Shown: positions 50,820 to 53,849, numbered from the stretch's first letter. The stretch: 64,000 nucleotides of DNA from Nannocystis sp. RBIL2 (GCF_026626745.1 NZ_JAPNJW010000002.1:1382151-1446150); one strand, 5' to 3'. The notes: generated by a model not told the origin, from the letters alone. A program made the numbers and translations.

Positions 50820-51091
50820 TAAGCGTCCGGCGAGCTACGTCGTGACGAGAAGCCAGCCGAGGACCTACAAGGGGGCCTCGGAGGATGAATGTTGAAAGAG
50901 AGTGATGAAGATCGTGGTGATCAAGGCGCGGTCGTGCTGCAGCCCGAGCCGCCGGCGCGAGGGACGTTCGCGCTGCTGATCCCGAGCGACATGTCGTGGC
51001 AGGCGAGCTCGTTCGGCGGTGCGCTGCGGCTGGACTTCCGACCGATGCGGCCGAGAGACCGGGCGGCCCGAGCGCGGGCGAAGGTCAAGCC

Positions 51092-51424
51092 ATGAGCACG
51101 GCGACGGAGGCGACGTGGCGCAAGCGGGTCGACGGCTGGATCGCCAGCGGTCAGACCTGCAAGGAGTACGCGGCGCGCATCCGGGTCAATCCGCACACGC
51201 TGGGTTGGTGGAAATGGCGTCTGCACGCGGCGCGGGCCGATGCACGTGCCCAGGGCACGGGCGAGGCCGGCTTCGTCGAGGTGACGGAGCAGGTCGCCGC
51301 CTCGCTGACGAGTGAGGCCGGAGTGCTCGAGCTCGAGGTCGGACGCGTGGTCCTCCGGATCCGCGGGCATGTCGGGGCCGACGTGCTCGGGAGCGTGCTC
51401 GACGTGTTGGAGGGGCGACGGTGA
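51092..51424 (+). CDS. tnpA: IS66 orf1 (TnpA)
   Basis: MSTATEATWRKRVDGWIASGQTCKEYAARIRVNPHTLGWWKWRL...LELEVGRVVLRIRGHVGADVLGSVLDVLEGRR. 4-nt overlap with tnpB. Confidence 0.85.
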   Translation: MSTATEATWRKRVDGWIASGQTCKEYAARIRVNPHTLGWWKWRLHAARADARAQGTGEAGFVEVTEQVAASLTSEAGVLELEVGRVVLRIRGHVGADVLGSVLDVLEGRR

Positions 51425-51762
51425 TCCCGGCGTCGGTTCGGATCTTCGTATGCACCGAGCCGCAGGACATGCGGCGCGGGTTTGATGCGCTCGCGCTCAC
51501 GGTGCGGCAGGTAATCGGCGAGGACCCGCGCGGCGGTGCAGTCTTCGTGTTCGCCAGTCGCAGGTCCGATCGCGTGAAGGTGCTGTGGTGGGACCACAAC
51601 GGCTACTGCCTGATGTACAAGCGGCTGCATCGGGCGCTGTTCCGGGTACCGGCGGCGGACGAGCCGGCGCAGCGCTCGGTGGTCGTCGACCCGAAGGGCT
51701 TCGCGGAGCTGCTGCGGGGCGTCGAGCGAGCCCCGCACCGTGAGGGTCGAAATCGCACTTGA
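51421..51762 (+). CDS. tnpB: IS66 orf2 (TnpB)
   Basis: MIPASVRIFVCTEPQDMRRGFDALALTVRQVIGEDPRGGAVFVFASRRSDRVKVLWWDHNGYCLMYKRLHRALFRVP. Confidence 0.9.
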   Translation: MIPASVRIFVCTEPQDMRRGFDALALTVRQVIGEDPRGGAVFVFASRRSDRVKVLWWDHNGYCLMYKRLHRALFRVPAADEPAQRSVVVDPKGFAELLRGVERAPHREGRNRT

Positions 51763-51779
51763 CGTGAATGCTCAAAAGC

Positions 51780-52172
51780 GTACGTAGGAGGCGTGACGAC
51801 GACGTCGCGGCCGGCGAGCATCATCTCGAGGATCTGCAGCGCGAGCTGTGGGTCGTCGCCGGCGGTGAAGCGCTCGGCCTTCTTGCCGACGACGATGCCC
51901 TTCTCGAGCAGCTTGCAGCGCTCGAGCAGCTCCATGTACAGCGTCTTGTACCGCTCGCGCTCGGCGGTCAGCTTGTCGATGGCGTCCGCATGCTCGCGCT
52001 CGGGGTCCAGATCGCCGAAGAATGGATCCACCTCATCGACGGCGACTTCGATGCGCCGTTGGAAGTCGATGAGTGGGGCGAGGTTCAAACACCTACGACC
52101 GCGACTAGCGATGCGATCATCGGCGTCGCCGTGCGTCGAGGCGGGGGCCGCTAAGTCGGTTGATGCCGCCAA
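51780..52172 (-). pseudogene. tnpC: IS66 transposase (tnpC) 5' fragment, opposite orientation
   Basis: DKLTAERERYKTLYMELLERCKLLEKGIVVGKKAERFTAGDDPQLALQILEMML. It abuts the end of the plus-strand tnpB. Confidence 0.6.
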
Positions 52173-52630
52173 CTCCCCTCCACCGCCACCTCACTGCGGA
52201 TCGAATTGGCGATGAAGCAAGCATCGTGAGCCGCGTGGTGCAGTTGCGCGACGGCGGCGTCGTCTGGCGCCGGGTCGCCCGCGAAGACCACCTCCGGGTG
52301 CAGCACAACGCGCGCGATCCAGGCCTTGCCCCCGGCGTTCTTTTCCATCAGACCGCGGGCCGTGTCGGTGTAGCACTCCACAGTGAAGCCCCTGGCAGCG
52401 GCCAGGCCAAGAAACCACAGCATGTGGCAGCTCGCGACCGAGGCGACGAAGGCTTCCTCGGGATCGACATGAGCGGGGTTCGAGAGGGGAACCCTGACGA
52501 CTTCGGGCGAGCTGGAGGCCGGCACCACCGCGCCCCCGTCGAAGCGCCAGAGGTGCTCGCGGCTGTACTTGTTGTCGGTGAACTTGCTGCCCTGCCTGGA
52601 CCATTCGATGGTTGCGCTGTGCGTGGACAT
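52151..52630 (-). CDS. OsmC/Ohr family peroxiredoxin-like protein
   Basis: Part of ORF 52151..52747 from ATG 52630: MSTHSATIEWSRQGSKFTDNKYSREHLWRFDGG...ASCHMLWFLGLAA...AHDACFIANSI. Confidence 0.85.
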   Translation of the reverse strand: MSTHSATIEWSRQGSKFTDNKYSREHLWRFDGGAVVPASSSPEVVRVPLSNPAHVDPEEAFVASVASCHMLWFLGLAAARGFTVECYTDTARGLMEKNAGGKAWIARVVLHPEVVFAGDPAPDDAAVAQLHHAAHDACFIANSIRSEVAVEGSWRHQPT

Positions 52631-52825
52631 CTTCGCCTCTCGGTCTCCAGGCCGGCATTGTAGACATACGGCGCCGGCATGTCCTCGCCCACGCAGTGGG
52701 GATGCTCCGCGGTCCGTCGGGCGCCACCCGATACGTTGCTGCGGCAATTGCTCGCCACCGCCGAGTCGGCAGTAAACGAGGCGCGCGCGGGCTGACAGGC
52801 CGCGAGCTGCGATTCGCGCCAGTGG

Positions 52826-53195
52826 TCCTCCAGCACGTCGAGAACGCGCCCGAGCACGTCGGCTTCGACGTGACCACGGATCCGGAGCACCACGCGCCCG
52901 ACCTCGAGCTCGACGAGGACGCCGGTCGCGTCCGTGCAGAGGTAGGGCTGCGTGAAGGCATCGGCGAACATCGCCTCGATGAGCGGCTCGACGAGGTCGG
53001 CGAGCTGCTCGTGCCAGCCGCAGATCGTCGAGCGCGCGAGCTGGAGGCCGTCGCGGGCGTAGAGCGCCTCGAGGCGGTTCCCGGGCAGGTGGTCTTGCCA
53101 GCGATGGACGATCGTGTCGGCGAGGAGGCCGGGGCCGGCGAGGCCGCGCTCGATCGGCAGCTCCAGGCGCTCCGCGATCTGCACCGCTGGCGCCT
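52826..53195 (-). pseudogene. IS66 fragments: tnpC middle part joined to a tnpA 3' fragment
   Basis: GLLADTIVHRWQDHLPGNRLEALYARDGLQLARSTICGWHEQLADLVEPLIEAMFADAFTQPYLCTDATGV is joined directly to LVELEVGRVVLRIRGHVEADVLGRVLDVLE. Confidence 0.6.
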
Positions 53196-53224
53196 CGGGT
53201 GCAGGCGAAGGAGCAATGCCAGCT

Positions 53225-53805
53225 CGGAGCCGGAGCTGGCCAAGCACGCGCTGTCGCTGATCAAGGCGCTCTTCAGGATCGAGCGCGCGCTGGCGACGGC
53301 GCCTCGCAAGAAGCGAGAGTCGGTCCGGCAGGCGAAGTCGAAACCCCTCGTCGACGCTTTCTTCCTCTGGTGCGACCAGCAGGCCGCGCTGGCCCTCGAC
53401 GGCACGCCGCTGGCCAGAGCTCTCGGCTACGCCCGCAATCAGCGGATCGCCCTGCAGCGCTTCCTGGGCGACGGCCGCCTGCCCCTCGAGAACAACATCT
53501 CCGAGCGCAACCTCCGGCGCGAGGTCATCGGCCGCAAGAACTGGTTGTTCCTCGGCAGCGAGGAGGGCGCCCGCGCCAATACCCTCTTCGTGTCGCTCCT
53601 GGCGAGCTGCCAGCTTCACCGCATCGAGCCCTGGGCCTACATCCGCGACCTGCTGTGCCTGCTCCCGTCGTGGCCCCGACGCCGCGCCCTCGAGCTCGCC
53701 CCGGCCTTCTGGCACGAGACTCTGAAACAGGAGGACACTCAGCAGCGGCTCGCCACCAACGTCTTCCGCCGGGTGTCGCTCGGGATGCATACGATCGAGG
53801 TGTAG
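53225..53805 (+). pseudogene. tnpC: IS66 transposase (tnpC) 3' fragment
   Basis: LIKALFRIERALATAP...LARALGYARNQRIALQRFLGDGRLPLENNISERNLRREVIGRKNWLFLGSEEGARANTLFVSLLASCQLHRIEPWAYIRDLL. Confidence 0.75.
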
Positions 53806-53849
53806 CCGAACGGCAGCTCAGGCGGGAACGCAGCTCGCCGGACGGATAC

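Follow-up and report, generated by a model that had tools for sequence, protein, structure and literature searches.

The IS66-family element found at positions 50819-53849 (3,031 bp) of the 64-kb stretch of DNA from the myxobacterium Nannocystis analyzed here (the window) is probably a single dead IS whose tnpC gene was destroyed by non-homologous rearrangement, with capture of an osmC cassette. The element is a product of ordinary mobile-element decay and not a functional composite transposon.

Ends, flanks and segment order of the element

The ends of the element were established by comparison with two intact reference copies (L001 and L002) from N. punicea and N. bainbridge, each 2,689 bp long and flanked by a perfect 8-bp target duplication (GTCCACGG in L001 and CTCGCGGC in L002; reference element coordinates 5399-8087). 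In blastn alignments, homology of both copies to the window element ended precisely at the outer bases of its inverted repeats. The left repeat (IRL; 50819-50840, plus strand; GTAAGCGTCCGGCGAGCTACGT) is the same as the left ends of L001 and L002, while the right repeat (IRR; 53828-53849, at the right end of segment f) is complementary to IRL at 19 of 22 positions. Both have the length of about 20–30 bp and the GTAAGCG start of IS66-family repeats, and the first 15 nucleotides of IRL, which starts with GTAAGCGTCCGGCGA, are those of the published inverted repeat of ISPsko1 (PMC12888890). A 17-mer end match taken alone was not significant, as at least two hits were obtained in 22 of 100 shuffles. 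In line with the blastn results, the proposal of the sequence-only reading that IS66-type termini bound about 3.03 kb held, except that the element starts one base to the left of the 50820 given there; the outcome that might have overturned it, a reference copy with other ends, did not occur.

A search of the entire 64-kb window with up to three mismatches detected no further IS66 ends, only one IRL and one IRR. Since a second pair of IS ends is absent, the unit is not the composite transposon it had been taken for. The 8-bp flanks are unequal, as had been noticed before (GGAGAACG vs. GACCGGCG), so that the element lacks a target-site duplication. On the left, the IS66 end truncates the N-terminal part of an IS4/5-family orfA remnant (50567..50818, minus strand), which matched DUF4096 (Pfam PF13340, E = 7e-14, profile positions 18-75 of 76), in agreement with the IS5-type gene described earlier. 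On the right lies a C-terminally truncated remnant of a kinase-TPR-type repeat (53851..54099, minus strand). The peptide itself gave no TPR hit in Pfam, even at E ≤ 10. A phmmer search of 1.84 billion representatives returned 416 hits at E ≤ 1e-3 (best identity, 65%), many of them with 5–10 repeated stretches and with TPR_12/TPR_10 and Pkinase domains; as the matches are repeats of such kinase proteins, the earlier label of a truncated TPR remnant stands. The two flanks, one an IS4/5 remnant and the other a TPR remnant, are thus not contiguous. The differing ends had been ascribed to separate insertion events, with which they are possibly compatible, as they are with IS-adjacent deletion. The unmatched flanks probably point to an additional rearrangement at one IS end, which could have been an IS-adjacent deletion or recombination with another copy.

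The internal organization was mapped by blastn against L001 and L002, with IS positions given in the numbering of the 2,689-bp reference. Segment a (50819..51797, plus strand; IS 1-979; 94.6% identity to L001) is forward and colinear, and contains IRL, an ORF of 68 amino acids (orf68), tnpA, tnpB and the tnpC start codon. It is followed by the inverted segment b' (51795..51999, minus strand; IS 1223->1019), a tnpC 5' fragment covering TnpC residues ~15-83 with 98% identity to L001 6417-6621 on the minus strand. Two 109-bp orphan stretches, Xl (52000..52108) and Xr (52718..52826), enclose the 609-bp osmC cassette (52109..52717, minus strand). Searches of the window and of 23 loci, as well as tblastn, returned nothing for either stretch, and the protein database likewise contained no match to Xl. 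The inverted segment t' (52827..52913, minus strand; IS 595->505) is the tnpA 3' end of another, diverged IS66 copy: over ~90 bp it showed 89–90% identity to L001 in blastn, and it was 85% identical to the IS66 relic at 28.3 kb and 85% identical, in a gapped alignment, to the tnpA 3' end of the element itself (89% in an ungapped inverted-repeat match of 87 nt). Fused to it is the inverted segment d' (52913..53197, minus strand; IS 1822->1538), a mid-tnpC piece that encodes the N-terminal part of the DDE domain and is 94% identical to L001 7220-6936 (blastn). The map closes with two forward pieces on the plus strand, namely the 28-bp tnpC segment e (53199..53226; IS 1821-1848; 26 of 28 positions identical to L001 7219-7246) and the 626-bp segment f (53224..53849; IS 2064-2689), which is out of frame with e and comprises the 3' third of tnpC and IRR (92–94% identity to L001 and L002 in blastn).

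Altogether, 2,123 of the 2,689 reference bases were kept and 566 bp were lost (IS 980-1018, 1224-1537 and 1849-2063). Where 314 bp were lost between the two flipped tnpC pieces, there is now 0.93 kb of foreign DNA, made up of the ~90-bp diverged tnpA 3' end and 827 bp of non-IS DNA, that is, the osmC cassette and the two orphan stretches. The opposite-strand tnpC 5' fragment and the fusion of inverted mid-tnpC to a tnpA 3' end, both recognized in the sequence-only reading, were recovered in this map; the plus-strand tnpC 3' fragment was also confirmed at 53224-53849, although the 28-bp forward piece that precedes it had been missed.

The claim that tnpA and tnpB are intact proved correct. Both tnpA (51092-51424, plus strand; 110 aa) and tnpB (51421-51762, plus strand; 113 aa) are full length, with the same lengths as in L001, and overlap by GTGA; upstream of them, orf68 (50889-51095, plus strand) is 97% identical to the corresponding L001 ORF. 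TnpA scored 43.4 bits against NCBIfam NF047593 (cut-off 28), and TnpB 96.3 bits against NF033819 (cut-off 50) and 102.8 bits (1e-29) against Pfam PF05717 (TnpB_IS66). The reference TnpC has 556 residues (326 bits against NF033517) with LZ, zf-IS66, DDE_Tnp_IS66 and C-terminal domains. Four tnpC pieces are left in the window, two inverted and two forward, and the remaining TnpC residues are ~15-83 and 181-284 on the minus strand and 354-556 on the plus strand, which do not make up an intact DDE transposase. The Pfam DDE_Tnp_IS66 match is split between d' (profile 1-78, minus strand) and f (167-283, plus strand), the latter also matching DDE_Tnp_IS66_C, while profile positions 79-166 are mostly lost, with only piece e left. 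The element would therefore be incapable of autonomous transposition, tnpA and tnpB persisting as intact ORFs.

Junctions and the course of the rearrangement

The junctions share 0–5 bp of microhomology throughout, and none lies at homologous IS positions. J1 has 3 bp (GAC), J6 a 1-bp overlap, J7 CCTCG plus two extra G, the only junction with additional bases, and J8 0–1 bp. J2 could lie ~40 bp further out; the first ~15 codons past b on the minus strand weakly resemble the TnpC N-terminus, a likeness that we judged unconvincing.

The IS coordinates of the inverted pieces adjoin those of their forward neighbours. The last IS position of d is 1822 and the first of e is 1821, and 39 bp separate the end of a (979) from the start of b (1019-1223). 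This indicates that the inversions took place on the spot within one copy. Identity to L001 (98% for b, 94% for d, 94.6% for a and 92.3% for f) cannot by divergence alone assign b and d to the copy that gave a and f. Relative to the intact element, the left 979 bp and the right 626 bp are forward and in place, and IS 1019-1223 and 1538-1822 each appear to have been inverted where they stood. Illegitimate joining, in one event or several, probably produced this arrangement, either by serial template switching during replication or by the joining of several broken ends, with filler DNA captured in the process.

The sequence-only reading had suggested a different history, in which at least two oppositely oriented IS66 copies recombined around osmC. 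In the full form of this model, the copies were complete, osmC was a resident gene between them, and a composite enclosing it was left behind. The absence of a target-site duplication, the existence of inverted tnpC pieces and the presence of several more IS66 relics within the window are in line with that history, as is the second, diverged and inverted tnpA 3' end; indeed, because t' and the tnpA 3' end of the element itself share only 85% identity, more than one IS66 copy must have contributed DNA, and this part of the suggestion was retained. However, the junctions do not fall at homologous IS positions and share only 0–5 bp, which argues against homologous recombination of opposed copies as the mechanism. 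Further, the 979/1019 and 1822/1821 adjacencies would be very unlikely in pieces of an independent copy, and the whole window holds a single IRL and a single IRR. Nor was the view of osmC as a resident gene that became enclosed upheld, given that N. pusilla, N. radixulma and several Logan contigs carry the cassette, with sharp ends, in other places. We therefore regard recombination between opposed complete copies as unlikely.

Other simple routes were also considered and rejected. A single inversion of the entire inner block, inversion by homologous recombination of two opposed copies, a complete second copy nested within the first and an IS circle junction would each give an order of pieces or a set of junctions other than that seen. 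An IS-mediated inversion by intramolecular transposition would have placed IS ends at the junctions, where there are none.

The osmC cassette in the window and in related genomes

The osmC coding sequence (52151-52630, minus strand; 159 aa) was found to be intact, as previously claimed. It aligns end to end with its homologues, and its product matches the OsmC annotated in Nannocystis sp. ILAH1 at 100% identity. The protein matched Pfam PF02566 with 47.5 bits (cut-off 27.5) and scored far under the NCBIfam cut-offs for the OsmC and SACOL1771 subfamily models. In OsmC/Ohr-family proteins, two conserved cysteines are catalytic; both residues, Cys67 and Cys137 (alignment numbering, initiator Met omitted), are present here and invariant in an alignment of seven sequences. 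Within the cassette, the gene is preceded by 87 bp of native DNA and followed by a further 42 bp, and a promoter scan placed a promoter-like site at 52685-52657, upstream of the gene. Judged from the sequence, because its own upstream region, the promoter-like site and both cysteines are retained, osmC most likely functions as an ordinary OsmC/Ohr-type hydroperoxide reductase gene inside the IS carcass.

An origin of osmC outside Nannocystis was suggested by the hits listed at first (98% to a Logan contig, then one at 75%, and then ~65% in Burkholderiales), but this was overturned when N. bainbridge, N. pusilla and N. radixulma proved to have OsmC proteins within the 90% cluster. At the DNA level, the cassette showed 96–99% identity to six other loci (L014, L017, L018, L020, L021 and L022), and, across N. 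pusilla, N. radixulma, N. bainbridge and Logan contigs, it has at least three further neighbourhoods. Across five other contexts, homology ended 10–42 bp past the stop codon and 53–87 bp before the ATG.

In N. bainbridge (L018, and the Logan contig L019), osmC likewise has fragments of the same IS on both sides, with the relative orientation seen in the window. At L018, the IRR tip (IS 2689->2647) is located 430 bp upstream of osmC, and IS 231->62 starts 10 bp after the osmC stop codon. This arrangement, which is not predicted by a pure account of local decay, hints that the association of IS66 and osmC is older and was perhaps once mobile. Accordingly, we weighed a reading in which the unit is, or descends from, a tIS66-type element, with osmC as a passenger between intact inverted repeats, TnpC supplied in trans and decay under way. 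Both repeats of the window element are indeed intact, passenger genes are documented in IS66 elements (ISPa75 with fosZ; 7 of 25 Pseudomonas IS66 members; PMC12888890), and, besides the bracketing IS pieces, the downstream osmC flank type is common to the window and L018, and also to L021. Against this, the window element lacks a target duplication, and L018 lacks both IRL and a duplication; it is another locus that has no rearrangement junction and, beyond osmC, the IS pieces and the downstream flank type, nothing else in common with the window. Its IS fragment shows 93.7% identity to the window copy and 93.1% to L001, and so is no nearer to the former; four other osmC contexts are free of IS66. 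In addition, osmC lies within a shattered tnpC, whereas the passengers of known tIS66 elements follow an intact tnpC. Among 5.8 billion proteins, neither the unit nor its chimeric ORF turned up a second time; the ORF itself (51603-52172, minus strand) gave only three partial TnpC matches with 34–43% coverage. A search of the JGI metagenomes for an exact osmC 28-mer also returned nothing.

Taken together, descent from a tIS66-type element is improbable, and equally doubtful is the related proposal that the window unit and the N. bainbridge arrangement are both carcasses of a once-mobile, non-autonomous osmC-carrying IS66 derivative that relied on TnpC in trans. If true, such a derivative would explain why 96–99% identical osmC copies occur in a differing neighbourhood in almost every genome examined. 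The movement of osmC between neighbourhoods across the genus, twice accompanied by pieces of the same IS, may be of interest to specialists in its own right.

As to the wider neighbourhood, exact protein matches to Nannocystis sp. ILAH1 were obtained for TnpA, TnpB, OsmC, a jacalin-like protein and GSCFA. The order jacalin, TnpA, TnpB, one gene, OsmC, three genes and GSCFA, deduced from consecutive accessions (MCY09922xx and MCY10691xx), is the same in two NCBI assemblies. A chimeric join of repeated IS66 reads, conceivable in a repeat-related region and allowed for in the sequence-only reading, is highly improbable, since this gene order argues against an assembly artefact, the pieces are not mutual duplicates (t vs. 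a, 85%; b and d, once each) and the junctions include unique DNA in the form of osmC and the orphan stretches.

Four further IS66-family relics lie at 28.3, 44.2, 46.0 and 60.7 kb of the window, which mark the region as relic-rich. This stretch of the Nannocystis genome is thus a graveyard of IS66-family relics, in which an annotated OsmC gene sits inside a dead IS. Outside annotation the finding carries little weight, and what is known of IS66 and OsmC is unchanged by it.

Comparison with known systems

The window element resembles classical IS66 elements (IS66, IS679 and ISPsko1) in its inverted repeats and its overlapping tnpA and tnpB, whose products pass the NCBIfam equivalog cut-offs. 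It differs from them in that its tnpC is broken into four pieces, 566 bp are missing, 0.93 kb of foreign DNA is present and no target duplication flanks it. An extra, conserved 68-aa ORF ahead of tnpA also sets this element apart.

As in tIS66 elements such as ISPa75 with fosZ, a gene without a role in transposition lies between IS66 inverted repeats, and disrupted, partly inverted copies of ISPa75 have also been described (PMC12888890). However, known tIS66 elements have an intact tnpABC with the passenger downstream of tnpC, and occur in many copies with 8-bp duplications, whereas in the window the transposase is destroyed and osmC is located in the middle of tnpC, so that the unit is not a functional IS66 element. 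Protein, locus and metagenome searches provided no evidence of movement of the unit.

With the composite transposons Tn5, Tn9 and Tn10, the unit shares a cargo gene bracketed by IS-derived DNA. In contrast to them, it has one pair of ends, one tnpA-tnpB set and only a fragment of a second copy, and a duplication at its flanks is absent.

The outcomes of FoSTeS/MMBIR or of NHEJ with filler DNA offer a further parallel. Clustered breakpoints within ~1.1 kb, in-place inversions, small deletions, foreign filler, microhomology of 0–5 bp and occasional extra bases are all features that the window element has in common with them. Most of the documented cases of such mechanisms come from eukaryotes and from E. 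coli quasi-palindrome systems; the breakpoints described here would be a clean, small-scale bacterial example of complex non-homologous rearrangement, possibly of interest to specialists.

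Intact reference element and segment map

Close relatives of the IS66-family element were retrieved with the window TnpB in N. punicea (locus L001, 96%) and N. bainbridge (locus L002, 94%). In both loci, homology to the window delimits a reference IS of 2,689 bp at 5399-8087, surrounded by 8-bp direct repeats that match perfectly (L001, GTCCACGG; L002, CTCGCGGC), which provides the intact copy against which the sequence-only reading had proposed to compare the element; 8-mer target duplications are listed for one IS66 member (PMC12888890). The terminal inverted repeats are 22 bp long and begin GTAAGCGTCCGG, their first 15 nt being those of the ISPsko1 repeat as quoted in PMC12888890. 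The reference IS encodes a conserved 68-aa ORF, TnpA (110 aa), TnpB (113 aa) and TnpC (556 aa; domains LZ_Tnp_IS66, zf-IS66, DDE_Tnp_IS66 and DDE_Tnp_IS66_C), the latter reaching 326 bits with the IS66 transposase equivalog model of NCBIfam (cut-off 180). The 68-aa ORF, located upstream of tnpA (window 50889-51095, plus strand; L001 5469-5675) and 97% identical in amino acids between the window and N. punicea, had no match in Pfam or NCBIfam, and may represent either a fourth ORF of the IS or simply conservation of its 5' region.

The scrambled element (50819-53849) was mapped onto this reference, with IS positions defined as the L001 coordinate minus 5398. Segment a (50819-51797, plus strand, IS 1-979) is followed by segment b' (51795-51999, minus strand, IS 1223->1019), 827 bp of non-IS DNA carrying osmC on the minus strand (52000-52826), segments t' (52827-52913, minus strand, IS 595->505) and d' (52913-53197, minus strand, IS 1822->1538), and finally segments e (53199-53226, IS 1821-1848) and f (53224-53849, IS 2064-2689), both on the plus strand. 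Thus, the element retains 2,123 of 2,689 reference positions and lacks IS 980-1018, 1224-1537 and 1849-2063. All the parts listed in the sequence-only reading were recovered: tnpA and tnpB have their full lengths and score above curated cut-offs, b' is the inverted tnpC 5' fragment, d' and t' are the mid-tnpC and tnpA 3' pieces fused at 52913, and f is the plus-strand tnpC 3' fragment. The Pfam DDE domain is accordingly divided between the two strands, with profile positions 1-78 on the minus and 167-283 on the plus strand. The 8-bp flanks are indeed unlike (GGAGAACG vs. GACCGGCG). As proposed, the left end cuts an IS5-type gene, an IS4/5-type orfA (DUF4096) without its first 17 profile positions, and a TPR remnant adjoins the right end, where the flank matches repeats of TPR_12/TPR_10 kinase proteins and had no Pfam match of its own. 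A related IS66 element is present in three N. exedens copies, one of which (L003, compared to L004 and L005) has a tnpC interrupted by approximately 2 kb of additional sequence (7261-9502), at a position equivalent to the e/f gap and probably a nested insertion.

The osmC cassette and its parallel in N. bainbridge

The osmC gene (52151-52630, minus strand) proved intact, as had been suspected, and its product shows the Pfam OsmC domain, two invariant cysteines and full-length alignment with homologues; a sigma-70-like site is predicted 27 nt upstream of the ATG. The 90%-identity cluster of the protein includes members from N. bainbridge, N. pusilla and N. radixulma, whose osmC loci were compared with the window together with several Logan contigs. 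Homology was limited to the cassette, at 96-99% identity throughout: L014, L017, L020, L022 and L023 match 52149-52717, L021 matches 52109-52717, and L018 and L019 match 52141-52683. Since the surrounding genes also differ among N. pusilla, N. radixulma, N. bainbridge, L021 and the window, the latter holds a 609-bp osmC cassette, with a downstream flank type common to L021 and L018. It is bracketed by two 109-bp stretches whose source was not found in the window, the 23 loci or by tblastn. These comparisons do not demonstrate that IS copies recombined around a resident osmC gene; rather, the gene seems to have been imported into a broken tnpC. Across N. pusilla, N. radixulma, N. bainbridge and several Logan samples, a 96-99% identical osmC unit of 0.55-0.9 kb lies in differing neighbourhoods (L017 9773-10655, L020 9753-10756, L021 1191-1828, L018 9948-10490, and also L014, L022 and L023); its downstream flank comes in two types, and its upstream breakpoint falls at several different positions.

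Fragments of the same IS likewise flank osmC, with their relative orientation maintained, in the N. bainbridge osmC locus L018 and in Logan contig L019, which is nearly identical to it. In L018, the right inverted repeat tip (IS 2689->2647, 43 bp) lies approximately 430 bp upstream of osmC, and IS 231->62 begins 10 bp past the stop codon. Within 9474-9565, this tip runs directly into a second, different IS66-family element, whose left end (GTAACCGTTCGGTAGACC...) matches those of the L008 and L013 elements; this is a nested IS66-in-IS66 insertion beside osmC. Nothing beyond osmC and IS pieces is shared with the window, and one insertion plus two or three deletions could turn a window-like ancestor into the L018 arrangement. 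This parallel, together with the passenger genes known in IS66 members (PMC12888890), would suit a former osmC-carrying IS66 derivative (tIS66-like). We nevertheless consider such an origin improbable, because the two loci have no rearrangement junction in common, the IS fragment in L018 resembles the window copy (93.7%) no more closely than it does L001 (93.1%), and L018 has neither a left inverted repeat nor a target duplication.

Junctions and origin of the scrambled order

Every junction was aligned base by base against the reference. J1 (a/b', IS 979 to IS 1223) shows 3 bp of microhomology (GAC) and J6 (t'/d') 1 bp; J7 (d'/e) has CCTCG in both partners plus two extra inserted G, and J8 (e/f) is blunt or has 1 bp, with 215 bp deleted and the frame shifted. 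Mis-assembly is argued against by junctions in which unique DNA takes part, and by pieces that are not duplicates of one another. Further, the window TnpA, TnpB, OsmC, jacalin-like lectin and GSCFA proteins are identical to those of Nannocystis sp. ILAH1, and each of the five also has an accession from a second NCBI assembly; consecutive accession numbers give the same order in the two assemblies (jacalin, TnpA, TnpB, one gene, OsmC, three genes, GSCFA).

In the sequence-only reading, at least two opposed IS66 copies seemed to have recombined around osmC. None of J1, J6, J7 and J8 joins equivalent IS positions, and therefore they were not made by homologous recombination between copies; this mechanism around a resident gene is rejected, as is a composite transposon. 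What stands is the contribution of a second copy, as fragment t, an inverted tnpA 3' end, diverges by approximately 15% from the corresponding end of the element's own tnpA, and likewise from a relic at 28302-28579.

Segment d ends at IS 1822, adjoining the start of e at 1821, and b starts at IS 1019, just 39 bp beyond the end of a (979). Had b and d been drawn at random from another copy in opposite orientation, both adjacencies would be very unlikely (rough estimate ~0.002 x 0.03 for a 2.7-kb element). The order is most simply described by four changes to a single IS copy: both segments bordering the central gap would have been flipped, each in place, the gap (IS 1224-1537) filled by 0.93 kb of other DNA, and 39 bp (IS 980-1018) and 215 bp (IS 1849-2063) lost. 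We infer illegitimate joining, in one or several events. Serial replication template switches might have run forward to 979, along the opposite strand (1223->1019), through other templates, along 1822->1538 and forward from 1821; alternatively, several clustered breaks may have been end-joined with capture of filler DNA.

Genomic surroundings and relation to IS66 elements

The relic at 28302-28579 (minus strand; IS 403-661) stems from the same IS and encodes TnpA residues 41-107 and TnpB residues 1-23, sharing 88% identity with L001 and 85-87% with pieces of the scrambled element; it directly follows a PAS/STAS gene (26989-28302). Using tblastn with the reference proteins, three more distant IS66-family relics were located at 44241-44357 (plus strand; TnpB 17-55, 41%), within an ORF (44058-44456) that also holds a sigma-54 activator (Sigma54_activat) fragment, at 45983-46246 (minus strand; TnpC 417-504, 36%) and at 60699-60818 (plus strand; TnpB 16-55, 45%). 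Few clean long ORFs occur in 43-47 kb and 57-64 kb, which look like a pseudogene-rich variable region, and the scrambled element is situated in a relic-rich, variable region.

Synteny with the related Logan contig L016 extends only from 54857 (the GSCFA gene) onward; as the DNA to its left is not shared, a breakpoint lies at approximately 54.83-54.86 kb. A cluster of GSCFA, WcbI-like and family-4 glycosyltransferase genes (54746-58115, plus strand) lies right of the element. Just left of the IS relics, a 63-64% GC stretch encodes a protein of 517 aa (48598-50151, plus strand) that has a jacalin-like lectin domain at its C-terminus; a homologue of this protein is on the osmC contig of N. pusilla. 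Window GC is 70%, falling to 60-65% at 20000-22000.

Taken together, the observation behind the sequence-only reading was confirmed and its interpretation supported in part: the unit is an IS66-family element that is dead, its transposase gene having been scrambled non-homologously, and it holds an osmC cassette that is apparently captured and functional. It is a further example of an already known process, IS decay, of modest interest for its clean complex-rearrangement signature and for a wandering osmC cassette repeatedly associated with the same IS in two Nannocystis species. Known passenger-carrying IS66 members, unlike the window element, have an intact tnpABC with the passenger downstream of tnpC (PMC12888890).
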